This document shows positions 1-56,133 of a stretch of 64,000 nucleotides of DNA, piece after piece. A program made the translations under genes and the position numbers. The stretch spans positions 26,933 to 90,932 of the forward strand of contig CAYYMJ010000003.1 of NCBI GenBank assembly GCA_964472855.1, read 5' to 3'. This DNA comes from an uncultured Rhodobacterales bacterium. GTDB lineage: Bacteria; Pseudomonadota; Alphaproteobacteria; Rhodobacterales; Rhodobacteraceae. Within the stretch, counting starts at the first letter, position 1. Each line of letters starts with the position of its first letter. The notes under the pieces were generated by a model, which saw only the letters and a list, made by a program, of their open reading frames with translations, had not been told where the DNA came from and did no database searches.

Positions 1-1624
1 ACTCGGACGCGACCAGGCATACCTTGCGACGGTTGGCCTCGTCCCCACGCCGGCGGAAATGGCCGCGCACCCAGCTTTCCAGGTTATCTTCGGTATCCAG
101 GCTGCGGGCCGCGACAAGGCGCGACCAACCGTTATCAAGCCGGGCCCTTGTTTCCGCCGCTTCGCCGAAATCGACGACCCGACCCGCCTGCATCACGATC
201 AGCCGGTCGCACATTTCCATCAAGCCGCGGTTCTGGCTGACGATCACCACCGACCGGCCCAGCCGTACCTCGTGGCGCAGCCGCTCTTGCAGCGCGGTGA
301 TCTGGCGGTCATGCAGACCGTCTTCGGGCCGGTCGAGCAAATAGACATCCGGGGCCAACAGCAGCGCACGTGCCAGGGCAAGAGATTTTTTCTGCATGTC
401 TGGCAGCAGGTCGGCCGGTCCGTCGCAGATCCGGTCGACCAGGTCGGCCGAAAACACCAGCTTTTCCAGAATTTGCCGCCCACGAGCCTTTGCCGTGCTG
501 TCGTGGAAACAGGCGAGATTGTCTTCGCCGGATGCGGGAAGCACAAGGGGAGCGGGCGGGAGATAGACCGCCGTGACGCGGCGCGGCCCGCGGCCGCGCT
601 GCCACAGATCGTCGCCATGAACCGACACGTGGCCCCTGACCTCGGCCATGGCAATCGAGAATGGATCGGCCAACACCTGCAGCAGCATGGATTTTCCGGC
701 GCCGCTGTCCCCCACCAGGCCGGTGATCGACCCTGCCGGAACGGCGAATGACACGTCGGACAACAACTTTTGCGCGCCGACCGACAGATCCAGCGCCGAC
801 ACCAGCAACCCGCCGGCTTCAATCTCGTCCGGCTCGTCCAGTTCATGGCGCAAAACGCGGGCCGGCGCGTCTGCCCCGGCGCTGGCTGACCGCATCGTGC
901 GCAGCGCTTTCAGCGCGCTGCCGGCGGCCCAATAGGTGATCAGGCCAATGGCCGCCACCGCCGCCGGTTCCAGCACGCCGGTCGCCGAAAGCCAGCTGCC
1001 CGCCGCCAAAGACGCGGCCACTGACAACCATGTCAGCGAAGTCTGAACCGCCCCCGCGAGCGTGTGTTCGTCAAAATCGGTCCGGGCAAGCCTCAGACCT
1101 TCAAGATCGCGCCCGGCAAGCACTGGCACCGCCTCGGCCGGCCGAAAATCCCACGCGGATTCGCGGCCACCAAACCGGCTCAGCAGCCAGAAGACCGCCA
1201 CCCCAAGCAGACCGGCGACCAGAACGGGAAACAGCAACAGCGGATGCACCAGCCCGAAGGCCAAGGCAACGATCAGGCCCATCCATCCCTGCACGCGGAC
1301 AAAGGTCTTGCGCCGCTCGCTGCGGAACCCTGCCATGGCCCGCGCATGGGCATAATCCAGGCCGATGGCGCCAAGGATCGGCACCGCGACGATGGCCAGA
1401 AGCACCGGCGCAAGCCCCAGCTCGCCCTGTTCGGCCACCAGCGACTGGAAGAACAGCGCCGACAGGGCCGCGGCCAGCCAGCAAAGCCCGATCAGCACCG
1501 CAAAGATGCCGCTGATTGCGCGCGCCCAACCGGGCGAACGCCGATCGACGCCCTCAAGGTTCAGTTGTCCCGCCTCTTCCATCGGAAAGAGATTGCCGGG
1601 TGTTTCGGAATCGCCGTGTGCCAT
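1..1624 (-). CDS. Membrane-anchored ABC-type ATP-binding protein with degenerate NBD and extra C-terminal domain (3' end runs off the window)
   Basis: Absent from the ORF track because no stop lies in the window. My translation of the minus strand from ATG 1624-1622 stays open to base 1 (541 codons). About 250 aa hydrophobic N-terminus (roughly 6 TM helices). Walker A is GDSGAGKS. The signature is LPDMQ instead of LSGGQ, the Walker B region is VYLLDRPEDG (Arg where the catalytic Glu sits), and the switch His is replaced (VVIVSQNRG). The frame then continues SRLVAARSLDTEDNLESWVRGHFRRRGDEANRRKVCLVASE, resembling the N-terminus of RsbW/SpoIIAB-type kinases. Confidence 0.75.
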   Translation of the reverse strand, partial: MAHGDSETPGNLFPMEEAGQLNLEGVDRRSPGWARAISGIFAVLIGLCWLAAALSALFFQSLVAEQGELGLAPVLLAIVAVPILGAIGLDYAHARAMAGFRSERRKTFVRVQGWMGLIVALAFGLVHPLLLFPVLVAGLLGVAVFWLLSRFGGRESAWDFRPAEAVPVLAGRDLEGLRLARTDFDEHTLAGAVQTSLTWLSVAASLAAGSWLSATGVLEPAAVAAIGLITYWAAGSALKALRTMRSASAGADAPARVLRHELDEPDEIEAGGLLVSALDLSVGAQKLLSDVSFAVPAGSITGLVGDSGAGKSMLLQVLADPFSIAMAEVRGHVSVHGDDLWQRGRGPRRVTAVYLPPAPLVLPASGEDNLACFHDSTAKARGRQILEKLVFSADLVDRICDGPADLLPDMQKKSLALARALLLAPDVYLLDRPEDGLHDRQITALQERLRHEVRLGRSVVIVSQNRGLMEMCDRLIVMQAGRVVDFGEAAETRARLDNGWSRLVAARSLDTEDNLESWVRGHFRRRGDEANRRKVCLVASE

Positions 1625-1775
1625 CTTGCCCATCCATTGCTGACGGCTCCACTCCTAGGTGCTTCCAATTAACAGACACTTATGCCCGGCCAGGAATTCC
1701 CCTGTCTCCGATTGTCCGTTTCTTAACCCGGACCGGCCTATGAGTTGGGTATTCGCCGCAATGACCGGGTGAGAC

Positions 1776-3464
1776 ATGACGAAGAAAACCGGCTCTTCTC
1801 GCAGGGGCGCCCAATTTGGACTGGCCGCCCTGTGCGGCTCCGCCGTCCTGCTTGCGGGCGCCACCTGGAGCGTCGGTTCAGTGGCCCGGACAATGCTGCT
1901 GAAGCAAGAGGAAGAGATTACGCCAATCATCGCCGGCGGCGACCTTGACCGTATTCCCGCCCTGATGCGCGGCAATCTGGCCACGATGACCACGTCGATG
2001 GTGGACGAGACCGAAAGGCGTGTAAAGCCGCCCCGCATGTGCGAGATGCCCGACAATTATTTTGAACGGCTGGATCGCGGGCTCGACCAGCGCGTCGGCT
2101 ATACCCGCCGCAACGAATATGTCCGCCCCTATCGCGACCGGCGCGGCTTTCTGAACGAGCGCGAGCTTCGCGCCGCCCGCGTTGCCTGGCACTATTTCGA
2201 ACAATTCACTCAGGAAACCACCGGCCTTGCCAATTCGGTTGGCAATTATCCGTCGACCACCATGTGGGACACCGCCAGCTATGTTGCCGGCGCTGTGGCC
2301 GCTTACGAGTTGTGCCTGATCGAAAAGCCCGAATTCGACCAGCGAATTCTGCAGCTTTTGACAACGATCAAGGGGCTGGAACTGTTCCGAAAGGAATTGC
2401 CCAACAAGGTTTATCACACGAAGACCGGCGAAAAGGTCGACTATACCAACAAGCCCGGTGAAATCGGGTTTTCGGCGCTGGATATCGGGCGGTTTCTGGT
2501 CTGGATGCGAATTCTGAAGAATCGCTATCCGCATTTCAGCAACACAATCGATTCGGTACTGTTGAAATGGGATTTCAGTAATGTCGTTGACGACGAGGGC
2601 CTGCTTCACGGCTCTTATGTCGATCGGGAAACCGGCAATACCGTCTACGCCCAGGAAGGGCGGCTGGGTTACGAGGAATATGCCGCCAAGGGTTTTGCCT
2701 TGTGGGGGTTTCAGCCCATTCTGGCGCACCGGGCGGAACCGTTTCTGACCGCGTCGATCTTTGGTGTATCCGTGCCCTATGACGGGCGCGATCCGCGCAT
2801 TTTCCATTCACAGAATTACGTGGTGACGGAAAGCTACCTTCAGGACGGGATGGAGCTGGGCTTCAACCTGCCCCAGGACGACTCCAGCCCCGATTGGCTG
2901 CATTCCGATGGCTGGCGCGCCGAATTCGCCGACCGCATCTACGAGGTTCAGGAAAACCGCTGGCGGCAAACCGGCTATATGACGGCGCGGTCGGAACATA
3001 ACGTCAAGGGGCCGCCGTATTTCACATATGACACGATCTTTTCCGACGGCTATCCCTGGAACACGGTTACGCCGCGCGGGGATTATGTGCCCGACCATGC
3101 CGCGGTTGCCGCCAAGGCGGCGCTCGGGCTGTGGGCTCTTTGGGACACCGACTATACCGATGTCCTGTATGAAGCGATCATCGAGCTTTATAATCCCGAA
3201 AAGGGCATGTTCGAGGGGCTGTATGAACGCGGCCAGGGTCGTGTCGAGATCTTCACCGCCAATAACAACGGCATCATCCTGACCGCGCTGCTGCACAAGG
3301 TGCAGGGCACGATCCTGACGCCCTACACCGGCGAAACCGAGGTCTGGTATACCGCGTTCCGCGATCAGGACCTGCGCCGACGGCGCAACTATCCGGATCC
3401 GCCGCAGGAAGCCGACTGGCTGCCTGCCCTGCGACACTCTCTTCCTATCGAGGTGGACTACTGA
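1776..3464 (+). CDS. DUF3131-like protein (putative glycan-active enzyme) with N-terminal membrane anchor or signal
   Basis: 562-aa ORF with hydrophobic N-terminus (FGLAALCGSAVLLAGATW). Shares blocks with the paralogue at 5040-6359: GNYPSTTMWDTASYV/AGYPAATLWDQGSYV, LPNKVYHT/LPNKVYNT, IGFSALDIGRFL/IGWSAIDIARLL, YAQEGRLGYEEYAAK/YVQEGRIGYEQYAAR. The DUF3131 name is from memory, not a search. Confidence 0.8.
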   Translation: MTKKTGSSRRGAQFGLAALCGSAVLLAGATWSVGSVARTMLLKQEEEITPIIAGGDLDRIPALMRGNLATMTTSMVDETERRVKPPRMCEMPDNYFERLDRGLDQRVGYTRRNEYVRPYRDRRGFLNERELRAARVAWHYFEQFTQETTGLANSVGNYPSTTMWDTASYVAGAVAAYELCLIEKPEFDQRILQLLTTIKGLELFRKELPNKVYHTKTGEKVDYTNKPGEIGFSALDIGRFLVWMRILKNRYPHFSNTIDSVLLKWDFSNVVDDEGLLHGSYVDRETGNTVYAQEGRLGYEEYAAKGFALWGFQPILAHRAEPFLTASIFGVSVPYDGRDPRIFHSQNYVVTESYLQDGMELGFNLPQDDSSPDWLHSDGWRAEFADRIYEVQENRWRQTGYMTARSEHNVKGPPYFTYDTIFSDGYPWNTVTPRGDYVPDHAAVAAKAALGLWALWDTDYTDVLYEAIIELYNPEKGMFEGLYERGQGRVEIFTANNNGIILTALLHKVQGTILTPYTGETEVWYTAFRDQDLRRRRNYPDPPQEADWLPALRHSLPIEVDY

Positions 3465-4969
3465 TGAAATCTCTCAGCTTTTTTGCGCTGGCGCTCTTGC
3501 CTCTGGCCACGTCCGCTGCCGCCCAGGTCGCACAGTCCGCCAGTGGCGCCGATGCCTTCACGTCCGAGAATGCGATCCTTGACACATCCGTGCCCTTCGC
3601 AATTGGCGCCAGCGAGGCGCGGCAAGACCTTCGCGGGTCGTTCGGCTGGCCCACGTTTCAAGAGGGTCTGGTCGAAGGCGTCTATTTCCGTTTCGATCCC
3701 GACGGTTACGCCCGCTTCGCGCCCACGCCCAGGCTGGACAGCGACGTCTTCGAGGTCATCTGCCGTCCGCGCACCTTCAGCTGCATTGCCCGCAAGGGCG
3801 CGCTGACGCTCTTGCTGAATACGCGCGGCCAGCTTGAGATCAACCTTGAGGGCGTGGTCCCGGGCGACACGCTTTACGTCATCGAAGGGGTCACCGAGCT
3901 TCAGATCCCCGACCGGATCCTGCAGCCGCTGGACTGGCATCTGGAAGCGCTGCTGTCCGCAGGGGGCGAACTTGTGGCCCGCCGCGGCCCTGACAATGAA
4001 ATCACCCGCGTGTCTCTGATCGGGTTTCCGGCCGTGACCGCCTATCTGCGCTGGATCACGGCCCGGCAGGACTATACCGTGTTGCCGCGCGGCTGGCCGG
4101 TGCCGAATGCCGGTGGCGGCGCGTCGGGCGCCCTGACCCAGGCGACAGGATGGCCCAACACGTCCGGCCCCGCACAGATTGTCGGCGCTCAGGAGTTTCA
4201 GGCGCAGGCCGCGGAACCGGTCGCCGAAGATTCCGAAGTGGAACTGCTTCGCGGCGATATCGCCCGGCTCAAGCAACTGCTGGAGGGCCGCGGCAGCGTC
4301 GAAACCGGCGCCACCGAGGCGGTGACAATCGCAGGGCCCGCCGCCGCAAGCCAGCCCGCGCCGTCTGCGGATCAGCTGAGCAATCTTGAAACGGCAACGG
4401 CCGCGATATTGCGCGAGTTGGAAGACCTGCGCGGCAAGATACTCGTCATCGAAGACTCGGCCCGCGCCGAGGCTGCGCCCGACCCGGCCGCCTTGCCGGT
4501 CGAGGCGGCCGAGGCCGCCCCGGAAGCCACCGATGCGGTCCAAGAAGCCCCTACGATTTCGCTGGCCGACAAGTTGGACTTTCTCATCACCGAGATCGGC
4601 ATCGATCCGCAATTGGCGGTTGTTCTTGTAGAAATCGGACATCCCGGTGAGACCGAGGGTTACCAGCTTCCCGTCGCCCTGAACGAGGCGTCGACGCTGA
4701 GTTCGGACGAGATTCTGTCGCAGCTTCTGTCGGGCCTGAACGCGGTCGGGCAACTGCCGCTGGCGCAGGCGGAAACGTCGGACGTTGCGGCCGAGCAAGA
4801 GCCGCAGATGATCGCGGAGACATCCGAGCCGGAGGAGGCACCGGTCGCCGAGGCAACCGACGCCGCCGAGGCCGAAGAAACGCCACAGGTTCCCGAATTG
4901 CAGCCCGGCGAATATGTTCTTATTGCCGACTATTTCGCGTCAGTCTTCGGTGACAAGTCCGAAGAGTGA
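3464..4969 (+). CDS. Secreted protein of unknown function with acidic Ala/Glu/Pro-rich C-terminal half
   Basis: 501-aa ORF. Its start ATG overlaps the upstream stop (TGATG at 3462-3466). Clear signal peptide MKSLSFFALALLPLATSAAAQ. C-terminal third is low-complexity and acidic (EAAEAAPEATDAVQEAP, EPEEAPVAEATDAAEAEE). I recognise no family. Confidence 0.7.
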   Translation: MKSLSFFALALLPLATSAAAQVAQSASGADAFTSENAILDTSVPFAIGASEARQDLRGSFGWPTFQEGLVEGVYFRFDPDGYARFAPTPRLDSDVFEVICRPRTFSCIARKGALTLLLNTRGQLEINLEGVVPGDTLYVIEGVTELQIPDRILQPLDWHLEALLSAGGELVARRGPDNEITRVSLIGFPAVTAYLRWITARQDYTVLPRGWPVPNAGGGASGALTQATGWPNTSGPAQIVGAQEFQAQAAEPVAEDSEVELLRGDIARLKQLLEGRGSVETGATEAVTIAGPAAASQPAPSADQLSNLETATAAILRELEDLRGKILVIEDSARAEAAPDPAALPVEAAEAAPEATDAVQEAPTISLADKLDFLITEIGIDPQLAVVLVEIGHPGETEGYQLPVALNEASTLSSDEILSQLLSGLNAVGQLPLAQAETSDVAAEQEPQMIAETSEPEEAPVAEATDAAEAEETPQVPELQPGEYVLIADYFASVFGDKSEE

Positions 4970-4994
4970 TAGTGACGGTCTGACGCCAGGATGA

Positions 4995-5027
4995 CAGCCG
5001 ATCGCCCCAAGCCGGGGCGATCGGCTG
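4995..5027. terminator. Perfect 14-bp-stem hairpin between convergent genes
   Basis: cagccgatcgcccc / ggggcgatcggctg with a 5-nt loop, lying between the stops at 4969 (+) and 5040 (-). No U-tract on either side, so intrinsic-terminator function is uncertain. Confidence 0.5.
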
Positions 5028-5039
5028 AACCGTAACAAC

Positions 5040-6359
5040 TCAGTTTGCCAGTGACGCGTGGGCCTGCATGAAGGGCCCGTATTGCACCCGGTGCAGGGCT
5101 TCCAGGACAACCGCATTGGTGTTGAGCGACAAGACCGCGTTATCCTCGCCGGTGGCCTCATAGCGACCGGCCATCCATCCGCCCGGATCCTGACCAAGAT
5201 CGGCCAGCCCCGACACCACCATCTCAGTGTATTCGGTGCCAAAGATCGCGTCCCAGCCAAAGGCCGCCTTGACGCTGACGGTTCGCAATTCGGGATAGTT
5301 GCCGCCGCCTTCGGTCAAGGCCGGCCAGTCCTTGCCGTCACCCCGCACCGCTGCGTAAAGAAAATAGGGGTCGCGGTCGAGGTGATCCTCGGTGACGGCG
5401 GTGATGATGCCCTTGTTTTCATAGCGGGCCTCTTGCGCGCGATAGACCTGCTGGGCAAGACGATGACCGTCGGCATCGAAACCCAGCTCCAGACCTTGCA
5501 GGACGAAGGGCTCGCTCAGCACCGGCGTGATGGCACCAAACCGCAGGTGAGACCTGCGGTCCTTTGGGATATCCACGCCTTCCGTGCTGGTCCAGGCCAA
5601 CACGCGCCGTACCGATATGGCCGCGCCGACGTCGAGCCCCCAAAGCGCGGCGGCCCGGGCGGCATATTGTTCATAGCCGATCCGGCCTTCCTGCACATAG
5701 TTGGTTTCGTCGTCGGACACGTTGGCACCGATAAGCTCGCCGCTGCCGCCGATGTCGGCGACCTTCCAGTTGCCGATAACAACGCGAATGGCCGGGCCGA
5801 AACGGGGAAAATGCCGCTCGGCGCTTCGCAGGGCCAGCAGCAGACGCGCAATATCAATGGCCGACCAGCCGATGCCGCCGTCAACAACTTCGTTGCCATA
5901 ATTCACCATGGCCAGCGTCATGGTGTTGTACACCTTGTTGGGCAGGCGTCCCTCGAACAATGGCAAAAGGGAAAGGCTGGTCAGAAAGCTCGTCAACCGC
6001 TCGTCGAAGTCGTCATCGTCGATGATATCCAGCCGCCGCGCCGAGATCAGCGCGAACACGTAACTTCCCTGGTCCCAAAGCGTTGCTGCGGGATAACCGG
6101 CCACGGAATCGACGAACCCGGTTTCGGGGCGCGTATTCTCTTCGAAATATCGCCATGCCGTCCGCGCGGCCGCGCGTTCCGGCTGCGTCAGCCCACGCAG
6201 GGGCGCGACGGGCAAAAGATCGTTGTCAATTGTCACCGGCGTGTCCATCCTCGTGTTGACCAACTCGCCACCTTCGATCCACAGCGAAACAGAGGCCGCC
6301 AACGCAAGCCCGGACACAAGCAAGACGCTTGATCTGTATTTGGCAACAACATCGGACAT
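5040..6359 (-). CDS. DUF3131-like protein, paralogue 2, N-terminal membrane anchor
   Basis: Start moved from the track start 6440 to ATG 6359 (MSDVVAKYRSSVLLVSGLALAASVSLW), preceded by AGGAGAAGA. Shares motif blocks with 1776-3464 (see that feature). Confidence 0.8.
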   Translation of the reverse strand: MSDVVAKYRSSVLLVSGLALAASVSLWIEGGELVNTRMDTPVTIDNDLLPVAPLRGLTQPERAAARTAWRYFEENTRPETGFVDSVAGYPAATLWDQGSYVFALISARRLDIIDDDDFDERLTSFLTSLSLLPLFEGRLPNKVYNTMTLAMVNYGNEVVDGGIGWSAIDIARLLLALRSAERHFPRFGPAIRVVIGNWKVADIGGSGELIGANVSDDETNYVQEGRIGYEQYAARAAALWGLDVGAAISVRRVLAWTSTEGVDIPKDRRSHLRFGAITPVLSEPFVLQGLELGFDADGHRLAQQVYRAQEARYENKGIITAVTEDHLDRDPYFLYAAVRGDGKDWPALTEGGGNYPELRTVSVKAAFGWDAIFGTEYTEMVVSGLADLGQDPGGWMAGRYEATGEDNAVLSLNTNAVVLEALHRVQYGPFMQAHASLAN

Positions 6360-6384
6360 GTCTTCTCCTGTTTGGGAATCGTTC

Positions 6385-8124
6385 CTATCGGGCAGGCGCG
6401 TGGCGTGCCAGAAACCCGGTGGTAAGCGTCCCGACGGCAACCGACAAAAGGCCCCAGGAATTCCAGACGATCCAGGCGGTATTGACGGTCAGGAACGAGG
6501 CGTCATAGCCATCGCGCCCAACACTTGCCGACCAGACGCCCACGGCTATGGCGGAAAAACCCGCGGCAACAATCAAAAGCCCGGGCAGGGCAAGACGCAG
6601 ATCATCCCCCTTCGTCGGAATCTTCGGGGTCGCGACAAAGCGGATCGGCAAACGCCGCCACGCAACCCACAGGCCGCGGAGGTTGGTGACCAGGCCCGAC
6701 AGGGCCAGCCTGCGTCCGGCATCGTGGGCGTGGGACTTGCTGCCAATTGCCAGCGCAATCTCGGCCGAAACCAGAAACGGCAGCAGGTGGGCAAAAAAGG
6801 ACGACGCGTAATTCCCGACCGGCGCGACACCTGTCATGAGCGCAATGATCGGTGCGGCGATCAGAATTGGTGCCCAGATCGCCGAAAGGTAGGACCAGAA
6901 TGTCGCCAGATAATGCAATCTGGTCGCCAGCGGCATTCCGTTCTGCGCAACCCCCGGCTCGTTGAAAAACAGGTCAAACGATCCGCCGGCATATTTGAAA
7001 CTTTGCAGCGTCCAGGCCCTGTAGGACCTTGGCGACAGCATCTTGGCCTCGACCCTGGGGTGATAAACCGATCGCCAGCCCAAGCCGTGCTGAATGCGTG
7101 ACGTGCAGATATCTTCGGAAACATGAAAGCGAAAGGGCTCGACCTGCGGGGTTGCGCGGCCGCGGGCCAGCCCCGGGTCGCCGTCGACCAGCGTCTGCAG
7201 GCGGCTGCGCCGGGCCAGAGCCGACGCAAACAGGGCGTCGCGGCGATGAACCGAACCGGCCCCACAGCAGAATGACGCATGATTGCGGTCGCGGCGGCGC
7301 TGGATCACGTCAAAAAACAGCAGGGACGAGGCAAAGAACGGATCCCCGCCAACCTTTACCTTTTCCAGACGCCGCAAAACACCCAGCGGCAGCAACTGCG
7401 CACATTTTTGCGACATCGAGCGTAGCAGACTGGCCAGGGTCACACCCTCGGGGACCTCGTAGAACCAGTGTGGGGTCTGAACCCAGCCAACCCGGGAATC
7501 GTTGAAATAGCCCAGCGTATTTTCCAGAAACCCCGGGAAAAGCCGGGTGTCGGCGTCGCAAATGACCAGAAATGCCCCATTGGTCCGGAACAGCACATGA
7601 CGCAGGTTCCCGGCCTTGTAGCCCAGGTTGTCGGGGCGGTCGAAGTAACCGATGCCATATTCGGTGGCCAGCGCGGCGGCTTCGGGGCGGCAACCGTCGT
7701 CGGCAAGGTGGATCATGGCGCGAAAGCCCGGCGGCACCCGAACCGACAGCGCATCGCGAATGGTCGGCCGCAATATTTCAGGCGGTTCGTCAAGGCTGGC
7801 GATGACGATGTCGACGACAACCTCGTCGTCCGGACCATGGCCAGCGCCGACCGGGGCCGGGGACAGGGGGCGCGACGGCTCTTTCCAGATGTCAAAAATG
7901 AACAAAGCCAGCCCGGCATAGGCCAGCGTTTCGGCCGACGCGGTTGCGACCGAGAACAAGGGGGCGGCGTCGTTCAGCCCCGCGCTCCAACGCCACCACA
8001 GATACCAGGCACCAAAGCCCAGCGCCATGGACGCGACAAGCTGCCAGGCGGTGCTGCGCGCCGTGCTCATCAAGGTCAGCTCTGGCGGCTGAACATGTTC
8101 AAAGTCTTCGAAATAAGCTGTCAT
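6385..8124 (-). CDS. Processive family-2 glycosyltransferase, cellulose-synthase (BcsA)-like catalytic core, no PilZ domain
   Basis: 579-aa ORF with BcsA-type blocks in order: DIVIASLDEP, HLADDG, ICDADT, VQTPHWF, FCCGAGSVHRRDAL, SEDICTS, then QSFKYAGG where QxxRW is expected. TM helices at both ends. The C-terminus shows no RxxxR/DxSxxG PilZ signature. Confidence 0.9.
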   Translation of the reverse strand: MTAYFEDFEHVQPPELTLMSTARSTAWQLVASMALGFGAWYLWWRWSAGLNDAAPLFSVATASAETLAYAGLALFIFDIWKEPSRPLSPAPVGAGHGPDDEVVVDIVIASLDEPPEILRPTIRDALSVRVPPGFRAMIHLADDGCRPEAAALATEYGIGYFDRPDNLGYKAGNLRHVLFRTNGAFLVICDADTRLFPGFLENTLGYFNDSRVGWVQTPHWFYEVPEGVTLASLLRSMSQKCAQLLPLGVLRRLEKVKVGGDPFFASSLLFFDVIQRRRDRNHASFCCGAGSVHRRDALFASALARRSRLQTLVDGDPGLARGRATPQVEPFRFHVSEDICTSRIQHGLGWRSVYHPRVEAKMLSPRSYRAWTLQSFKYAGGSFDLFFNEPGVAQNGMPLATRLHYLATFWSYLSAIWAPILIAAPIIALMTGVAPVGNYASSFFAHLLPFLVSAEIALAIGSKSHAHDAGRRLALSGLVTNLRGLWVAWRRLPIRFVATPKIPTKGDDLRLALPGLLIVAAGFSAIAVGVWSASVGRDGYDASFLTVNTAWIVWNSWGLLSVAVGTLTTGFLARHAPAR

Positions 8125-8133
8125 GGAATCCGT

Positions 8134-8868
8134 TTATCCGCCGCCGTTGGCGCGAAGAAAATCATCGACAAAGGCATCGGCCACGCCGACCACAAGCTCG
8201 CGTTCGGAAAGCCACGCCTCGGCGGTCGGGCGGCTGGAATAGCTCCAGACGCCAACCGACAGTTTCGTGCTGAGATCACGCGACAACAGCGCCGTCTGTG
8301 TCAGGCTGGCGAAGACCGAATAGGTATAATCACAGCTGCTGTCGGGGTCGGTGAAGGAAAAGAACACGCCAAGCTTGGGTTGCCCCGGCAATCGCGCGGC
8401 TTCGGCCGGGTCAAGCACCAAGAGACCGGCCGCGCGCAGCCTGGTTTCGAATTCTTCCTGAAGCTCGGTCCCGAAGCTCGAACTGTATCCCGGCGGCGGA
8501 CGCATGTTCCGCAAATCGACGCCCACACCGATCAGACCGCGCAGGGCATCCAGCTTGTCGGACAGAAACTGACGCTCGGTGTCATATTCGGGGGCGCCAG
8601 GCTCCAGATTGTTCTGGCAAATGCGCGGGGCATCCGGGTTCTGCCCCTCGTCGATCGCGCCATGATCGGCAGGCCCGAACATGCGATACAGCCATTCGTC
8701 GTTTTCCGGCGTGAAAAGACGGCTGCGATACGCGCTTTCGCAGGCAGCGCCGTCACAGTCTTCGTCGGTCTGGCGATGCTCCCACAGCAGCCAGAACCGG
8801 TCTTCCGGCGCGGCCTGAGCCGATGCTGCAACCGCCAGGAACAGCCCCAGGATTGCGGCGCGTTTCAT
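8134..8868 (-). CDS. Periplasmic or secreted protein of unknown function
   Basis: 244-aa ORF with signal peptide MKRAAILGLFLAVAASAQA. Lies 9 nt downstream of the GT2 stop (GT2 ends 8124, this stop is at 8134) and overlaps the next upstream gene by 4 nt. No family recognised. Confidence 0.7.
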   Translation of the reverse strand: MKRAAILGLFLAVAASAQAAPEDRFWLLWEHRQTDEDCDGAACESAYRSRLFTPENDEWLYRMFGPADHGAIDEGQNPDAPRICQNNLEPGAPEYDTERQFLSDKLDALRGLIGVGVDLRNMRPPPGYSSSFGTELQEEFETRLRAAGLLVLDPAEAARLPGQPKLGVFFSFTDPDSSCDYTYSVFASLTQTALLSRDLSTKLSVGVWSYSSRPTAEAWLSERELVVGVADAFVDDFLRANGGG

Positions 8869-10343
8869 GCCCGCCGCGCCTGCCGCCGCGCGCTTTGCAG
8901 TGGACCGACATTGTCCAGCGGTCCGGCCGGAACCACGCCGGCATGGGCGAAGGCATAGTCAAATGCCCAATTCGGGCCGGTGATCTTGCGATCGACCAGC
9001 GCGCCGCGCCCGACCACCGTGTCGGGCAGGATGATGCTGTTACGCACGACCGAGCCGCGGGCAGCCACCGCGCCACTGCCCAGCACCGACGGACCAATCA
9101 TCTGGGCGCCGCGTTCCACCCGGGCGCCACGGCCCACGTAGCAAGGGCCATCGACGGTCGCCAGCCGCGAGAATTCGGCGCCGTCTTCGACCCAGATGCC
9201 AGGGTGGATCTGCCGGGCGTCGGGCAAGAGGATGCCGTCGACGCCGCGCAGGCCCTTTTGCAGAACGCTCGCATAGTCACGCCCGCACCCCACGTCATGC
9301 CAGCTGAAGTCGGGCGCCCAGCATTGCACGTGGCCCCCATGTTCAAGCAGTCGCGGCAAGAGATCGGTCGCGATGTCCTGGCCCGCACCCTCGGGCAGAT
9401 AGGAAACCGCCTCGGGGCTGAACACGTAGATCCCCGTGTTGGCCAGTCTTGACCGCGCCTGCGTCTGGTCGGGCTTTTCCTGAAAAGACGTGACCCGGCC
9501 TTCGCCGTCACGGCAAATGATGCCGTATTTCGAGACCTGGTCTTCGGGCACGGTCTGGGCGGCGATGGTGGCAATGGCCCCGGTGTCGCGGTGGTGGGCG
9601 ATCAGTTGGGCGATGTCGAGGTCAACGACCGCGTCGCCGCAAAGCACCAGAAACTCGCGATCGAACAGGGCATGGTCACGGTCGAGCTTTTGCAGGGTCG
9701 AGGCCGACCCAAGCGGCCGTGCACACCAGCCATCCGGGCCGTTATGACCTTCGCGCAGAAACAGCAACGACCGGGTGTCGGACGGTCCCTGGCGGAAGTG
9801 GTCGATGATCTGCTGGCCCAGGTGGCCGGGGTTCAGCGCAAAGTCACGAATGCCAAAAGTTTCGAGGTGACGGACAATGCGCTCGACCACCGGGCGCCCG
9901 AGAATGTCGAGCATGGGCTTGGGATAGATCTCGGACAGGGGCGCAATGCGCGAGCCACGCCCGGCGCAAAGAACCACGGCGCGCACGCCGCGCAAACGAA
10001 ACCGGCGAATGGCGATATCCGACAGGGCCGCGTCGACCGACGGGTAGATCGGCAGGCCCGGGCGCAGGCTGACGCGGTCGACCAGTTGCAGAACCTGCTG
10101 GCCCAGCGCACAGAAGCCGAAACAGATGGATTTGTTGATGGCCATCAGTTCGACCAGGCCGGCAAGCCCGCCGTAGGTCACGCGCCTGACGCGGCTGAAA
10201 TCGATCAGGATCGCGCGCTTGCCCTGCAGGCTCAGCCGGGCGCTGATTTCGGTCAGCGGACCGAAAAGATCGGCCTCGAGCTTGCGGGCCCGCAATTTCA
10301 GCACCGCGATATTGTCGTTGCGGGGTTCGACATCAACCAACAT
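8865..10343 (-). CDS. STAS-domain / sugar-1-phosphate nucleotidyltransferase fusion protein
   Basis: N-terminal ~110 aa look STAS-like (NIAVLKLRARKLEADLFGPLTEISARL...ILIDFSRVRRVTYGGLAGLVEL). This is followed by the nucleotidyltransferase motif VVLCAGRGSRIAPLS..YPKPML and a C-terminal hexapeptide-repeat-like region (GARVERGAQMIGPSVLGSGAVAARGSVVRNSIILPDTVVGRGALV). The start is either ATG 10343 (abuts the upstream stop at 10345) or the track start 10382. Confidence 0.85.
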   Translation of the reverse strand: MLVDVEPRNDNIAVLKLRARKLEADLFGPLTEISARLSLQGKRAILIDFSRVRRVTYGGLAGLVELMAINKSICFGFCALGQQVLQLVDRVSLRPGLPIYPSVDAALSDIAIRRFRLRGVRAVVLCAGRGSRIAPLSEIYPKPMLDILGRPVVERIVRHLETFGIRDFALNPGHLGQQIIDHFRQGPSDTRSLLFLREGHNGPDGWCARPLGSASTLQKLDRDHALFDREFLVLCGDAVVDLDIAQLIAHHRDTGAIATIAAQTVPEDQVSKYGIICRDGEGRVTSFQEKPDQTQARSRLANTGIYVFSPEAVSYLPEGAGQDIATDLLPRLLEHGGHVQCWAPDFSWHDVGCGRDYASVLQKGLRGVDGILLPDARQIHPGIWVEDGAEFSRLATVDGPCYVGRGARVERGAQMIGPSVLGSGAVAARGSVVRNSIILPDTVVGRGALVDRKITGPNWAFDYAFAHAGVVPAGPLDNVGPLQSARRQARRA

Positions 10344-10344
10344 T

Positions 10345-11478
10345 TCAGGTGATCTCCGCTGTCTGGGTGTTGCGACGGCCAAGGCGCGGCAGGGGGCCCA
10401 GCCCGATGGTCCAGGCGATCAGGGGAATTCGGCCCATGATGGCCACCAGGATCGACGTTGTCGTAAGCGTCCAGACGATCTTGATCAGCACTTGCAGGGT
10501 CGGCGTCAGCGCGACGTTGCTTAGCGCGATTTCCGCCAGGTCGAGGAAGATCGGGTGACACAGGTAGATGCCGAATGAATAGGGTGCCAGCCGGGACAGG
10601 ATGGGCGGCCAGCGGCGATGCGCCAGCGACATGCAGCCGGCAAACAGCGCCACCGGCATCAGGAAATCGGCCCAGTAACCGGCGGTATAGTTGAAGGGCC
10701 ACGCACCGGATTCGATGGTCTTGTAGCTGGCCACCAGTTTGAGCGTGAACAGCGCCAGGCCGATGTAAAGCGCCGGCAGAAACCACTCTCGCCCGTCGGT
10801 GGCGCGCAAGCGATCCCAAAGGCCCAGCGCCGCGGCGGCGGCAAAGCCATAGCCCGCATAGGTCAGAACCTTGACGGCCCGAACCGCGAATTCCAGCCAG
10901 GCGGCGTCGTAAAATGTGCCATAAAGAAAGCCGTCGAGCTCGCGCTTGACCAGCAGGCAGACGATCACGGCCATCCCGAATTGCGGATACTTCCGGGCCA
11001 CGCGGAACAGCGGATACATCAGCACCAGAAGAAACAGCGTCGGAAGAAAGTGCATGTGGAATTTCACGCTGCCCAGCGTGGCATATCCCAACAGGGCGAC
11101 CGGGTCCGTCAGGTCGGCCAGCCGCGCGTCAAGATACCCAAAATAGTCTGCCTTTATAAGGGTGTAAAAGACGTAAAACACCGTCCAGAATGCGAAGGGC
11201 ACCAGCAGCCTGCGCACCTGAACAGCGATGGTCTGGCGATAGGTGGCGGGGCGCCGGTCCAGCGACATCAGCAGCAGGAAGACCGAGATCATCAGAAACA
11301 GCTCGGTCCGGGCGGTATAAAGGACCGCCCGCAGCAGGATCGGGCCGGTTCGCTCGGCCAGAGAATAGTCGACCCATGGCAAACCGCTGGAATCCGCCGT
11401 CGAATGCAGCCCGACCATTGACAGCCCCGCCGCAAGGCGCAGGGCATCGAGCCAAACCAGTCTTTCTTTTTCAGCCAT
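10345..11478 (-). CDS. Acyltransferase family 3 (OpgC/OafA-like) integral membrane protein
   Basis: Start chosen at ATG 11478 (MAEKERLVWLDALRLAAGLSMVGLH, typical acyltransferase-3 N-terminus) rather than the track start 11685. About 10 hydrophobic helices across 377 aa. Confidence 0.8.
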   Translation of the reverse strand: MAEKERLVWLDALRLAAGLSMVGLHSTADSSGLPWVDYSLAERTGPILLRAVLYTARTELFLMISVFLLLMSLDRRPATYRQTIAVQVRRLLVPFAFWTVFYVFYTLIKADYFGYLDARLADLTDPVALLGYATLGSVKFHMHFLPTLFLLVLMYPLFRVARKYPQFGMAVIVCLLVKRELDGFLYGTFYDAAWLEFAVRAVKVLTYAGYGFAAAAALGLWDRLRATDGREWFLPALYIGLALFTLKLVASYKTIESGAWPFNYTAGYWADFLMPVALFAGCMSLAHRRWPPILSRLAPYSFGIYLCHPIFLDLAEIALSNVALTPTLQVLIKIVWTLTTTSILVAIMGRIPLIAWTIGLGPLPRLGRRNTQTAEIT

Positions 11479-11621
11479 CAGGGTTCCCGTTCCGTTTTCC
11501 GGCAACCTGTCAGCCGACTCCCAAAAATTGGTAAACCGCGCCCCAACTTTTTCACCCGGCCGACCACAACGATTCCTTAAGCCTTCCCGGTCATGACTTG
11601 GCCCGAAAGGGATGCCCGCGA

Positions 11622-12149
11622 ATGAGCAGAATTGCCTTGATCCTGTTGCTGGTGCTTGCACCCGACAGCCTTGCCGCCCAGGCACTTTCGGCCAATGACT
11701 GCGCCGAAATCCGCGCCGCCTATGGCATAATCCCCCAAGGGTGCCCGGCTGTCGCCGACGTGGCCGCCCCGGTGCGCGCGTTGTCAGAACCGGCCCCGTC
11801 GGATCGCGAAAGCCATATCTTCTTTCCGCACGGCGGCAGCCGGGTCGACCCGGCCGGCGCGGCCCAGATCGAACGGTTGGCCGCGGTTCTGGAATCGCCT
11901 CCTGTGGCGGGCCTGTGCATCCGCCTGACCGGGCACTCTGACGTCTCCGGCGCGGCGGCGGTCAACGTGCGGATCTCGCGGCGCCGGGCCGAGGCCGTGG
12001 CGACCGCGCTGCGGCCGCTGATGGCCGACAATACCCGCATAACCGAGGTGCGGGGCCTGGGCGAAGCCGAACCGCTGCCCTCGATCGACCCGACCAGTTC
12101 CTGGCAACGCCGCGTGGCAATCGAACTGGGGCGCTGTCCGCCGGTCTGA
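11622..12149 (+). CDS. OmpA-like (peptidoglycan-associating) domain protein with signal peptide
   Basis: Start moved to ATG 11622 (MSRIALILLLVLAPDSLAAQA). OmpA C-terminal motif LTGHSDVSGAAAVNVRISRRRAEAVATAL. Divergent from the glycan operon. Confidence 0.75.
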   Translation: MSRIALILLLVLAPDSLAAQALSANDCAEIRAAYGIIPQGCPAVADVAAPVRALSEPAPSDRESHIFFPHGGSRVDPAGAAQIERLAAVLESPPVAGLCIRLTGHSDVSGAAAVNVRISRRRAEAVATALRPLMADNTRITEVRGLGEAEPLPSIDPTSSWQRRVAIELGRCPPV

Positions 12150-26736: not shown

Positions 26737-29021
26737 CAGCTCAGGCCCAGCGCCTGACGCCGCCGCTCGGCCCAGGCGTTGGTTGCGATGTCGAAGGTCA
26801 GCGCCATGAAGACCACCGAGAAGCCAAGGACGAAATTCTTGCCCAGAAGCGTGCCGGCCATGGTGCGCTGCAATTCCTGCCCAAGGTCGCGGGTGCCGAT
26901 GAACGCGGCGATGATGACCATGAAGAAGGCGAACATCAGCGCCTGGTTCAGGCCCACCGCGATGATCGGCATGGCCAGCGGCAGTTGCACCTTGAACAGC
27001 TTTTGCATGCGGGTGGCGCCCGACATTTCGGCCGCCTCGACCATCTCGGGCGGCACTGCCCTGAGCCCCTCCATCGTATAGCGAACCACCGGCACCATGG
27101 TGTAGATCAGGATCGACAGGATCACCGTGGTCGAGGTGATGCCGAACAGCATGATCGCCGGCAGCAGGTAGATAAAGCTGGGGAAGGTCTGGGCCGTGTC
27201 GACGACCACCATCATCACCCGGTCACGCGACATGTTGCGCACTCCCAGCCACAACAGCGCGAAGGCCACGCCATACACGTACAGCGACGGGCTGCGCGGG
27301 CTGAGAAACGCGGCAGCGCCTTCGGTAGCCGTGCCGTAATGGATGACCCCCGACAGGATAAGCGCGCCAACCGCGATGGGAATGCGCCTGAAGATCAGGC
27401 CGATGATGCCAATTGCCAGTTCGTCGAAATCATTGCGCAGGCTCATCCTTGGCGCGTCGCCACGGCTGACCCATATCCCCAGCGGAATGCCCAGAACCAG
27501 GCTGAGCAGCACCGCGATCAGCGTGGAATGCATGGTCAGCATGGCGCGGTCCCACCAGCCAAACTCGGCAACGATGGCGAAAAAGATCAGCGAGATGATG
27601 GCCGGTCGGCGGCCACCAAGGCGGAAACAGGCGGCGGTGATCAGGGCCATCACCGCCAGCGTCGGCAGATAGACCAGAAAACGCTCGGTCGGCAGCAGGA
27701 CATACAGGTTCAGCGTGACCCGGATCGCCCCGGTCACCGCCTTGACGCCGTCCAGGCCCAGCCAGTGTTTCATGCCGCTGTCGATGGGTTTGCCCATCGA
27801 CCAGTCCTGCGATCGGTGCACCTCGCCCAGAACCGAAAACGTGTATTGCCCGATATTCTTGACCCAGGCCGCAGCGTGGCCGATGGCGCCGCCTTCATAT
27901 TCGAAATCGCCCAGCTTGTAGTGCGGGGCCAGATCCGACAGGCGGCCAACGATCACGAAGACCACGAACAGGCCCAGCGTCGACAACAGCGGCAGGTTGC
28001 GCTTCCACCATGGGGTGCCACGCTCGAAATGCACCGGCTGTTTCAGCACCCACGCCTTGGTCAGCCGGTCCAGCACCACTGCGACCAGCACGATGGTGAT
28101 GCCGATCTCGAGGCTGCGGCCCAGCTTGAAGCTGTTCATCATCGCCAGCAGCTTGGCGCCAAGGCCCGGCATGCCGATGAAGGCGGTCAGCACGACCATG
28201 GCAAGGCTGAGCATGATGACCTGGTTCAGGCCCACCAGAATCTCGGTTCGGGCCGAGGGGATATAGACATGGCGCAGCATCTGCCAGCGCGAGCAACCGG
28301 CCATCTTCCCGGCTTCGACCACCTCGGGCGGAACCTTTTTCAGGCCGATATTGGTCAGCAGGACCATGGGTGGCAGCGCATACATGATGGTGGCCACGGC
28401 GGCGGCGGTGGGGCCGACCTTGAAAAAGATGACCGCCGGCAGAAGGTAGGACAGGAAAGGCAGGGTTTGCAGCACGGCCAGCGCCGGGCGCACCACGCGT
28501 TCGAACCGCTTCCACTTCCAGGCCGCGATACCGGCCAGCAGGCCCAGCGTGAAACTGACGGGCGCGGCGACGACGATGACGCTCATCATCTCCATCGTCC
28601 ATTTCCACTGGCCCATCATGGCGGCGTAGACGCAGGTTCCGGCCGCCAGAAGCGCCAGACGCCAGCCGCCCAGGTGATAGCCGATCATGCCGGCCACAGC
28701 GGCGACGGCCGACCACGGGATCGCCTCGAACCGCGGCCAGCGCGATTTGCCGTAAAGCAGGTTGGCGGCCGCATTGATGAGAAAGCCCAGCCAGTCGGCG
28801 ATTGTGCGGGTCACCTCCATCAAGCCCAGATCGTTCTGAAGCCAGGAAAAGATCGCGTCGATCCAGGGTTCCCACGGCAGGACGGCGGCTTCGGGCAGCC
28901 GGATCAGCCAGTCGGGCAGGAACGGGCGCAGAAGCAGCAGCAGTGCCGCAAAGCCCAGCAGGCCCCAGGTAATCTGGCGGTGACGCCGGGCCAGGCCCTC
29001 GATGGCGGCGGTGTCGCTCAC
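26736..29021 (-). CDS. tmoV: ABC transporter permease, fused double-module (glycine betaine/choline family; TMAO transporter TmoV-type)
   Basis: 761-aa very hydrophobic ORF with two permease modules. It overlaps both neighbours by 1-4 nt. The gene order tmm-tmoX-tmoW-tmoV-tdm matches the marine TMAO uptake system as I recall it. Confidence 0.75.
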   Translation of the reverse strand: MSDTAAIEGLARRHRQITWGLLGFAALLLLLRPFLPDWLIRLPEAAVLPWEPWIDAIFSWLQNDLGLMEVTRTIADWLGFLINAAANLLYGKSRWPRFEAIPWSAVAAVAGMIGYHLGGWRLALLAAGTCVYAAMMGQWKWTMEMMSVIVVAAPVSFTLGLLAGIAAWKWKRFERVVRPALAVLQTLPFLSYLLPAVIFFKVGPTAAAVATIMYALPPMVLLTNIGLKKVPPEVVEAGKMAGCSRWQMLRHVYIPSARTEILVGLNQVIMLSLAMVVLTAFIGMPGLGAKLLAMMNSFKLGRSLEIGITIVLVAVVLDRLTKAWVLKQPVHFERGTPWWKRNLPLLSTLGLFVVFVIVGRLSDLAPHYKLGDFEYEGGAIGHAAAWVKNIGQYTFSVLGEVHRSQDWSMGKPIDSGMKHWLGLDGVKAVTGAIRVTLNLYVLLPTERFLVYLPTLAVMALITAACFRLGGRRPAIISLIFFAIVAEFGWWDRAMLTMHSTLIAVLLSLVLGIPLGIWVSRGDAPRMSLRNDFDELAIGIIGLIFRRIPIAVGALILSGVIHYGTATEGAAAFLSPRSPSLYVYGVAFALLWLGVRNMSRDRVMMVVVDTAQTFPSFIYLLPAIMLFGITSTTVILSILIYTMVPVVRYTMEGLRAVPPEMVEAAEMSGATRMQKLFKVQLPLAMPIIAVGLNQALMFAFFMVIIAAFIGTRDLGQELQRTMAGTLLGKNFVLGFSVVFMALTFDIATNAWAERRRQALGLS

Positions 29022-56057: not shown

Positions 56058-56133
56058 TGGTGCCCCCAGAGAGACTCGAACTCCCGACCCCCTGATTACA
56101 AATCAGGTGCTCTACCAGCTGAGCTATAGGGGC
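56058..56133 (-). tRNA. tRNA-Thr (anticodon UGU)
   Basis: The reverse complement GCCCCTATAGCTCAGCTGGTAGAGCACCTGATTTGTAATCAGGGGGTCGGGAGTTCGAGTCTCTCTGGGGGCACCA folds as a cloverleaf: 7-bp acceptor, D arm GCTC/GAGC, anticodon stem CCTGA/TCAGG with loop TTTGTAA, T arm GGGAG/CTCTC with TTCGAGT, encoded CCA. Confidence 0.95.

Follow-up and report, generated by a model that had tools for sequence, protein, structure and literature searches.

A putative glucan locus of an uncultured Rhodobacterales bacterium with a STAS-pyrophosphorylase fusion and a predicted RsbW-fold domain on a degenerate ABC protein

The closest experimental precedent for a polysaccharide enzyme that is governed through a fused STAS domain comes from Anabaena, where All4160, a STAS-Bac_transf fusion protein for heterocyst polysaccharide, is placed under RsbW-type kinases and the PP2C phosphatase HenR; its STAS domain is phosphorylated at Ser74 by active kinases, and HenR is required (All4160/Alr3423/HenR, 2026; bioRxiv 10.64898/2026.04.08.717354). 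For a synthase of glycosyltransferase family 2 (GT2) combined with a HlyD-like adaptor, the BgsA/BgsB/TolC machine for mixed-linkage β-glucan provides a precedent (PMC13438883), and an enterobacterial sister of the locus treated here has been listed, not studied, as the accessory 'block 3b' of Klebsiella pneumoniae in a pangenome paper (PMC12974863). We analysed a DNA stretch of 64,000 nucleotides from an uncultured Rhodobacterales bacterium (contig CAYYMJ010000003.1 of assembly GCA_964472855.1, forward-strand positions 26,933 to 90,932), which is called the window in the following. A preceding interpretation made from the letters alone (the sequence-only reading) had proposed that eight genes at the left end of the window form an undescribed envelope-glycan system under partner-switch control. 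No functional study of this locus was found in the literature searched (DUF3131, STAS with nucleotidyltransferase, roseobacter glucans), which agrees with the proposed novelty, but the listed sister locus and the Anabaena analogue set limits to it.

The analysis points to a Rhodobacterales version of envelope β-glucan loci of alpha- and gammaproteobacteria, in which precursor supply would be docked by a phosphorylation-free contact between a STAS domain and an RsbW-fold domain, a reading to which we give about an even chance. The core of this locus family consists of a BcsA-like GT2 synthase and two or three DUF3131 proteins, usually accompanied by an OpgC-like acyltransferase. Members occur in roseobacters (Shimia, Phaeobacter, Roseovarius, Sulfitobacter), Klebsiella, Salmonella plasmids, Pantoea and Vibrio. 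All eight genes that had been named before were recovered at essentially the same coordinates, and the observation was confirmed and extended: the region has a G+C content of 60–66%, third-position G+C picks a single coding frame for each stretch, and the choice of frames matches the gene calls on the matching public contig (L001). The limits of the unit had to be widened to ten genes, comprising window positions 1–12149 and one gene beyond the left edge. The two additional conserved members code for an OmpA-family peptidoglycan-binding protein of 175 aa, divergently transcribed from the acyltransferase gene (11622–12149, plus strand; Pfam OmpA E 5e-10), and for a HlyD-like protein (PF13437), whose gene is situated beyond the left border of the window and overlaps the stop codon of the gene for an ABC-like membrane protein.

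That these genes belong together as one unit, as had been claimed for the first eight, is borne out by their co-occurrence in at least ten further loci, with protein identities of 37–80%. Relatives were collected by a single-protein search of genome contigs, which gave one true relative, and by a scan of metagenomes, which gave seven. The genomic relative, Harenicola maris KMM 3653, carries all eight genes in identical order with protein identities of 42–77%. In the metagenomic loci reached via the ABC-like protein (L010, L012, L016–L019), the genes for the DUF3131 paralogue A and for a secreted protein of 501 aa always adjoin the ABC gene, and a HlyD-like gene for about 390–490 aa overlaps or follows the latter wherever the sequence beyond is in view. 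The loci reached via the fusion of a STAS domain with a nucleotidyltransferase (STAS-NTP; L023–L025, 36–46% identity) all contain the OmpA-like, acyltransferase, STAS-NTP and GT2 genes, both DUF3131 genes and a homologue of the 501-aa gene, and each of them codes for an ABC protein with an RsbW-like domain. The 501-aa gene lies beside that for DUF3131-A in every locus examined, and the OmpA-like gene is found at the equivalent position in L010, L023, L024, L025 and L026. For a second secreted protein of 244 aa, homologues were present in L002, L023 and L024 and were not found in L010, L012 and L025. STAS-NTP and the ABC protein with the RsbW-like domain occur together in every locus that shows both regions, and the combination of STAS-NTP, degenerate ABC protein, GT2 and DUF3131, on whose conservation outside this genome the proposal depended, is present in at least ten further loci. 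The gene modules are at most about 10 kb apart in most loci in view, at 37–50% protein identity, with L016 and the truncated L019 as exceptions. Synteny kept in this way in many genomes goes far beyond what chance would produce.

Four sister loci were reached by tblastn searches of plasmid records with DUF3131-A. In Chimaeribacter arupi, one strand codes for an RsbW-like 'ATP-binding protein', a STAS protein, a REC-PP2C protein, a hypothetical protein and OpgC, and the other strand for GT2, three DUF3131 proteins, a globin, a hybrid histidine kinase and GH2. Plasmid pDSJ10 of Pantoea stewartii carries genes for GT2, three DUF3131 proteins, a globin, a hybrid kinase, GH2, REC-SpoIIE and an RsbW-like protein, with the kinase gene separated by IS66; STAS and OpgC are absent from its annotation table. 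The locus of Vibrio sp. THAF190c (L028) codes for REC-SpoIIE, STAS, NTP_transferase with a left-handed β-helix (LbH), HATPase_c_2, GT2 and three DUF3131 proteins, with GH16 further on, and a plasmid of Paracoccus seriniphilus for REC-PP2C, STAS, an RsbW-like protein, a hypothetical protein, DUF3131, an acyltransferase, GT2, another DUF3131 protein, a peptidoglycan-binding protein in lieu of the OmpA-like protein of the window, and a hypothetical protein of 506 aa. Identities to the window proteins are 39–41% for GT2, up to 58% for DUF3131 and 35% for the Vibrio NTP_transferase. The Paracoccus acyltransferase is 36% identical to that of the window and equivalent in position; the Chimaeribacter 'OpgC domain-containing protein', also at the equivalent position, showed no tblastn similarity to the window acyltransferase at E 1e-3. 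The sister STAS proteins carry the motif DSSG(L/I)G (DSSSLG in Chimaeribacter), and the sister kinases carry intact E..N..H and SG(R/M)G motifs. The Vibrio STAS gene stops 12 bases upstream of the NTP_transferase start, and the two adjacent genes represent the unfused state of the window fusion. Because homologous sister loci carry a stand-alone canonical partner switch, we regard the window as a fused, reduced derivative, and the complete canonical switch in the sister operons makes a partner-switch ancestry of the two fused window domains very plausible.

The enterobacterial sister loci share another arrangement, in which a small globin gene lies directly upstream of a gene for a PAS-PAS-HisKA-HATPase-REC-Hpt hybrid kinase (L029:16831–19994 and L027:14822–17932). 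The adjacency of globin and hybrid kinase suggests a gas input (O2 or NO) to the REC-PP2C phosphatase.

The fusion gene of the window (8865–10343, minus strand) codes for a protein of 492 aa, in which a STAS domain (about 9999–10343) is followed by an NTP_transferase domain (about 9258–9980; E 4e-34 for the protein) and a left-handed β-helix (about 8976–9197). Taken alone, the STAS domain of the window stays below the Pfam cut-off (E 4.5e-4 to 5e-3). PF01740 matches 24 of 25 homologous N-termini with a best E of 3.5e-11, and about 80 clusters of homologous STAS-NTP fusion proteins of 490–520 aa were obtained. A profile of the STAS family matched the anti-sigma antagonists 4QTP, TM1442, RsfB and SpoIIAA among the PDB sequences at E 5e-8 to 4e-5, and MlaB-type STAS proteins ranked much lower (E 3e-3 to 5e-3), so that the earlier assignment as a STAS domain was correct. 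The column corresponding to Ser58 of SpoIIAA and Ser56 of RsbV holds Ser or Thr in one of 78 homologues; Ala (18), Met (12), Arg (9), Tyr (8), Phe (8) and others are found in its place, and the window protein has Tyr. In the column next to it, 47 of the 78 homologues have Ser or Thr. Searches by tblastn with the REC-PP2C, STAS and RsbW proteins of Paracoccus and Vibrio revealed no PP2C phosphatase and no further STAS or RsbW protein in the 64 kb window.

The second domain of interest belongs to the ABC-like membrane protein, whose N-terminal 541 of 650 residues are encoded at positions 1–1624 (minus strand; Pfam ABC_tran E 9e-15) before the gene runs off the window. The full-length protein of 650 aa was read from contig L026, which is 99.85% identical to window positions 1–11624. 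It consists of about six predicted transmembrane (TM) helices and a degenerate nucleotide-binding domain (NBD; about 140–772), followed by a C-terminal domain of which the first ~42 residues (1–127) are in the window and the remainder is off it. As the sequence-only reading had stated, the NBD is degenerate: in the family alignment, Walker A is intact (GxSGAGKS), the signature LSGGQ is changed to LPxxQ, the D-E of Walker B to D-R (D-R-P-E) with loss of the catalytic Glu, and the position of the H-loop His is variable (Q/E/D/H/G). Because signature, Walker B Glu and H-loop are lost, a homodimer would contain no competent ATPase site. A competent ABC exporter was considered and ruled out by these lost motifs. 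The TM part matched no Pfam family and contains no ABC_membrane domain, and the adjoining HlyD-like adaptor matched PF13437 (HlyD_3) at or near the cut-off in all five proteins tested.

The C-terminal domain was modelled with AlphaFold2 from residues ~498–645 of the ABC-like protein on the basis of 12 homologues, with a pLDDT of 88.7. The top 14 Foldseek matches in the PDB were SpoIIAB, UsfX and RsbW (E 6e-7 to 3e-4, probability 1.00) with TM scores of 0.65–0.83 (up to 0.83 by target), and the CA domains of histidine kinases ranked lower. Model and SpoIIAB have their secondary-structure elements in collinear order, and residues E46 and D80 of the domain are in register with E46 and D81 of SpoIIAB. 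The model thus supports an RsbW/SpoIIAB fold for the C-terminal extension of 140 residues, as had been suspected from its first residues. The kinase function that had been attached to this suspicion was not supported. When the family is aligned to SpoIIAB and to three canonical RsbW-like proteins associated with the loci, its N-box reads SE(L/M)LAFSC versus SEAVTNAIIH, and the Mg-binding Asn (N50 equivalent) is replaced by Leu (35), Phe (31), Tyr (7), Val (5), Ala (2), Met (1) or Ile (1) and never found as Asn among the 91 family sequences aligned; all 83 residues that could be placed at this position are substitutions. In the same set, the Asp of the G1 box is retained and its glycines are not, and the GxG of the G2 box has become P-L-A in about 80% of the sequences. 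Judged by these residues, the domain looks like a family-wide pseudokinase lacking the ATP-binding residues of the kinases, and because the canonical sister loci retain all these features, the loss of the motifs appears real and not an alignment artefact. The domain is rare: a profile search of 1.84 billion representative proteins found it 77 times, and it is C-terminal in every full-length match (about 575–760 aa); shorter matches look like fragments. For the partner-switch control that had been proposed, these results support ancestry and architecture, as seen from the canonical sister loci, but not a working phospho-switch, since the Ser58 position, the N-box and the G2 box are altered and no PP2C gene was found in the window.

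The glycan part of the locus is represented by five minus-strand genes running from 11478 to 5040, which are closely spaced or overlapping and resemble an operon. The synthase gene (6385–8124, minus strand) codes for a BcsA-like, putatively processive GT2 protein of 579 aa (NCBIfam CelA E 4e-38; PDB BcsA E 1e-20). The motifs DDG, DAD, SED (in place of TED) and FxCG are retained and invariant in a six-locus alignment, and QxxRW is replaced in all six loci by an invariant Qx(L/F)KYAGG (residues ~373–380). The combination of Qx(L/F)KY and SED may reflect a different acceptor geometry or linkage. The matches to CelA and BcsA stay well under the equivalog cut-offs. No PilZ domain was detected up to the end of the protein at residue 579, no BcsB, BcsC or BcsZ was found among the Pfam-scanned neighbours, and the related loci contained no conserved sigma factor, in agreement with the prediction that PilZ and sigma factors are missing. 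The acyltransferase gene (10345–11478, minus strand; Pfam E 1e-27) codes for an Acyl_transf_3 membrane protein of 377 aa that is OpgC/MdoC-like, MdoC being its sole NCBIfam match (E 4e-8, 32.8 bits versus a cut-off of 338). Identity as a canonical cellulose (Bcs), curdlan or osmoregulated periplasmic glucan (OPG) operon was rejected, the hallmark partners being absent.

Two secreted proteins with signal peptides matched no Pfam or NCBIfam family. The 244-aa protein is encoded at 8134–8868 (minus strand), and the 501-aa protein at 3464–4969 (plus strand). The start codon of the latter overlaps the stop codon of DUF3131-A, which suggests translational coupling of the two. The N-terminal domain of the 501-aa protein (~210 residues) is well conserved, with identities between genomes of up to 67%; behind it come a tail rich in Ala, Pro and Glu, which is acidic and poorly conserved, and a short conserved C-terminal motif (…YxLxxDYFxSV…).

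The two DUF3131 paralogues offer the main clue to the product. DUF3131-A (1776–3464, plus strand; 562 aa; Pfam E 1e-117) and DUF3131-B (5040–6359, minus strand; 439 aa; Pfam E 6e-127; also called as a gene in L001 and L026) are 33–37% identical and share the invariant acidic residues D165, D236, E294, E300, E352, E360, E407 and E484. Because both have N-terminal membrane anchors, they are presumably periplasmic. DUF3131-A is by far the most conserved protein of the locus, with 74–84% identity across Rhodobacterales genera (Shimia, Phaeobacter, Roseovarius, Sulfitobacter, Roseivivax and others), compared with 37–60% for its neighbours between the same loci, and this conservation includes an N-terminal extension of ~125 residues. 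No second family came up for DUF3131 in Pfam scans at relaxed thresholds. A profile of DUF3131 matched the GH189 transglycosylation (cyclization) domain of the cyclic glucan synthase Cgs from Thermoanaerobacter (8WY1) at E 4e-5 and the same region of the Agrobacterium and Brucella Cgs at E 0.17. The AlphaFold2 model of DUF3131-A is an (α/α)6 barrel, and its top 17 Foldseek matches in the PDB were all β-1,2-glucan enzymes (GH144, GH192–194, GH189, full-length Cgs and GH162; E 3e-8 to 4e-5), whose families have been described (PMC12102758). By its modelled fold, DUF3131 therefore belongs to the clan of β-1,2-glucanases and glucanotransferases ('SGL clan' or GH-S) that includes the Cgs cyclization domain, which is a new assignment.

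Because of this fold, the product may be a β-1,2-linked, OPG-like or cyclic glucan. The gene set suggests an OPG-like or cyclic-glucan-like pathway assembled from non-orthologous parts, with a linkage that we infer. The earlier view that the hallmark partners of known glycan systems are missing is accurate for the Bcs partners and for OpgH and OpgG/OpgD; the locus is nevertheless not wholly unlinked to known glucan systems, since DUF3131 shows kinship with the Cgs cyclization domain and the acyltransferase resembles OpgC.

As judged from the family membership of the enzymes, the cytoplasmic STAS-NTP protein would activate the sugar as a nucleoside diphosphate (NDP)-sugar pyrophosphorylase, and the GT2 protein would polymerise the chain and thread it across the inner membrane. 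The membrane-anchored, periplasm-facing DUF3131 enzymes may then cut or transglycosylate the chain, and the acyltransferase may O-acylate the glucan product. The remaining five proteins (ABC-like, HlyD-like, OmpA-like and the two secreted ones) would build an envelope-spanning scaffold or export device. In the lineage of the window, the genes for STAS and pyrophosphorylase, once neighbours, have become one; an RsbW-fold domain forms the C-terminus of the ABC protein, and the phosphatase (sought in the 64 kb), the ATP-binding residues of the kinase and the phospho-serine of the STAS domain are missing. The two relic domains may still bind each other without phosphorylation, so that precursor supply would either be docked onto the membrane apparatus or be sequestered there, with nucleotide occupancy of the non-hydrolytic NBD as a possible input.

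Several observations weigh against this scheme or against parts of it. The RsbW-like domain was not connected to kinases by sequence: its profile gave no relevant match among PDB sequences, hhalign against SpoIIAB returned a probability of 0.2, hmmsearch against the locus-associated RsbW proteins 2–5 bits, the profile search of the 1.84 billion representatives retrieved ABC fusions alone and no bona fide kinases, and Pfam HATPase_c_2 matched one of 12 family members (E 9e-4). Since these sequence-level searches gave no significant link, the kinship with RsbW rests on the fold and on the collinear positions of the motifs. The model of DUF3131-A is moderate (pLDDT 77, TM scores of 0.55–0.63 by target), owing to a shallow alignment, and the β-1,2-glucanase clan includes one group without a known substrate (PMC12102758). 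The best NCBIfam matches of the pyrophosphorylase are mannose-1-phosphate guanylyltransferase and archaeal GlmU-like proteins, both far below the cut-off, which makes the sugar specificity ambiguous, and GH16 genes lie beside two related loci (L023:7199–7987 in a Rhodobacterales metagenome-assembled genome and L028:17960–18754 in Vibrio). Both facts call for caution on the linkage. The enterobacterial sister loci have a GH2 gene in place of GH16, and such GH16 and GH2 neighbours might bear on the linkage or the side chains of the polymer. The two gene modules are rearranged or more distant in L016, L019 and L023, and the RsbW-like domain is still well conserved in L010 despite a diverged STAS-NTP.

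The last point leads to an explanation in which the relic domains are uncoupled, which we consider possible and clearly less probable than docking: the STAS domain would regulate or oligomerise the pyrophosphorylase itself or bind the NBD in the manner of MlaB and MlaF, and the RsbW-fold domain would serve for dimerisation or regulation as in MalK and MetN. In L010 (2329–3645), the STAS-NTP gene is split into reading frames of 51 and 360 aa with 21% identity and loss of the GxGxR nucleotide-binding motif, which could mean that the gene has decayed to a pseudogene, that the assembly contains a frameshift or that a third pseudoenzyme has arisen. Because the RsbW-like domain is conserved in this locus with decayed STAS-NTP, it may have a STAS-independent role, and uncoupling would also fit the MlaB-type proteins that the STAS profile retrieved from the PDB and the loss in both domains of the residues needed for canonical switching. 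It is opposed by the better matches of this profile to anti-sigma antagonists (E 5e-8 versus 3e-3), by the joint presence of STAS-NTP and the ABC protein with its RsbW-like domain in every locus showing both regions, and by the sister loci, where STAS and RsbW-type kinase are encoded by neighbouring genes.

If the two gene groups were independent neighbours, a glycan operon (acyltransferase, STAS-NTP, GT2 and DUF3131-B) would merely adjoin a type-I-like ABC/HlyD exporter with DUF3131-A and the 501-aa protein as cargo or partners. The location of the modules on different strands, their rearrangement in L016, L019 and L023, the match of the last TM segment and NBD of the ABC protein to type I secretion models (PrtD, LssB; E 4e-21) and the adjoining HlyD-like gene agree with this explanation. 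We nonetheless hold it to be unlikely, because most loci in view keep the modules no more than about 10 kb apart at 37–50% identity (L016 and the truncated L019 do not), an NBD without catalytic motifs would be unable to power a homodimeric exporter, and the Paracoccus and enterobacterial operons hold DUF3131-A-type, DUF3131-B-type and GT2 genes together. Least credible is a working phospho-switch, in which the ABC-fused domain would phosphorylate the STAS domain as an RsbW-type kinase and a phosphatase encoded elsewhere would reset it. Fold and domain pairing match SpoIIAB and SpoIIAA, the Bergerat fold retains Glu46 and Asp80, and 47 of 78 homologues have a Ser next to the canonical site; yet the Mg-binding Asn is missing family-wide, the G2 box reads P-L-A, all but one of the 78 homologues lack Ser or Thr at the phospho-Ser position, where the window protein has Tyr, and no PP2C was detected within the 64 kb, while the sister loci retain all these features. 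The phosphorylation-free docking of precursor supply remains our preferred reading over these three.

The stretch that separates the divergently transcribed ABC/HlyD and DUF3131-A/501-aa pairs (1625–1775, from the gene map) contained no Rfam element and gave no informative promoter match. No riboswitch, c-di-GMP riboswitches included, was found in the Rfam scan of the window, and promoter and terminator scans stayed at background; the sole Rfam match of the 64 kb is a tRNA gene at 56061–56133 (minus strand). Past 12.2 kb, the window continues with unrelated genes (nitroreductase, TRAP transporter, aminotransferase and others). To the left of the window, contig L026 contains microcompartment shell genes with EutN/CcmL and BMC domains (L026:21155–21758), ~9 kb past the HlyD-like gene. 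Genes of glutamate and glutamine metabolism lie in between, and the shell genes are apparently unrelated to the locus.

The locus family is widespread and has no assigned product. If DUF3131 indeed acts on β-1,2-glucan, the loci would indicate a new type of synthase for a class of polymers tied to osmoadaptation, symbiosis and virulence. New elements are the fold assignment of DUF3131, the small family of ABC-fused RsbW-like pseudokinases (77 representatives in 1.84 billion) and the homologous GT2-DUF3131 loci, with or without an OpgC-like protein, that code for a stand-alone partner switch of the canonical kind. With such a switch placed in a glycan operon that lacks a sigma factor, they provide a tractable system for studying targets of RsbW/STAS modules other than sigma factors, a point that is still unsettled for SypA/SypE. 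The variant of the window represents a natural experiment on what remains of a switch after the loss of phosphorylation, with both folds kept and fused to their presumed clients, and this double-pseudoenzyme fusion architecture is unprecedented. As a tentative and rather doubtful extension, the GT2-DUF3131 loci may constitute a third, hitherto unrecognised route to periplasmic or surface glucans of the β-1,2 type beside Cgs and OpgGH, with an output set post-translationally by a partner switch acting on the biosynthetic machinery in place of a sigma factor. In marine Rhodobacterales, this switch would have been frozen into a phosphorylation-free contact between STAS-pyrophosphorylase and pseudokinase on a pseudo-ABC/HlyD scaffold, yielding a double-pseudoenzyme device that couples precursor supply to export.

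Compared with known glucan systems, the locus shares single features with several of them. Cgs (GT84-GH189-GH94) with its transporter ChvA/NdvA resembles it in the DUF3131 fold and in the weak sequence signal to the Cgs cyclization domain; in contrast to Cgs, the window has no GT84 or GH94, its synthase is BcsA-like, and its ABC protein is catalytically degenerate and not NdvA/MsbA-like. With the OPG pathway (OpgH/OpgG/OpgD/OpgC) it has in common the logic of a GT2-type synthase, periplasmic processing of the glucan and an OpgC-like acyltransferase, and no locus protein gave an NCBIfam or Pfam match to OpgH or OpgG/OpgD (GH186). What BgsA/BgsB/TolC and BcsA have in common with it is a membrane-embedded GT2 protein of the processive type, here by prediction, with the motifs D, DxD, (T/S)ED and FxCG; an adaptor of the HlyD family is encoded in the same locus. 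The window synthase differs by QxxKY in place of QxxRW and by the absence of the PilZ/c-di-GMP C-terminus, the gene for the adaptor goes with that for the ABC-like protein, not with that for the synthase, and BcsB, BcsC and BcsZ of the cellulose system are missing.

Regarding the regulatory domains, MlaFEDB also pairs a STAS protein (MlaB) with an ABC nucleotide-binding protein (MlaF) at the inner membrane. MlaF is a competent ATPase, however, MlaB is a stand-alone protein, the system contains no Bergerat-fold domain, and the STAS profile of the window is far nearer to the anti-sigma antagonists. The loci of Enterobacterales, Vibrio and Paracoccus (block 3b type) share the homologous GT2-DUF3131 core and internal STAS and RsbW-type elements without a sigma factor. 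Their STAS protein, HATPase_c_2 kinase and REC-SpoIIE phosphatase are stand-alone and motif-intact; they also code for a hybrid histidine kinase, to which Enterobacterales add a globin, and show no ABC/HlyD genes in the stretches examined, whereas the window has an ABC-like/HlyD-like pair, fused catalytically dead domains and no phosphatase. Anabaena All4160, with which SypA/SypE of Vibrio fischeri is grouped as a related partner-switch case, resembles the window protein in its N-terminal STAS domain on a polysaccharide enzyme, its RsbW-type partner and a post-translational mode without a sigma factor. It differs in that the window combines the STAS domain with an NDP-sugar pyrophosphorylase, has dispensed with the phospho-site and the kinase motifs, and carries its RsbW-fold domain tethered to a membrane ABC protein.

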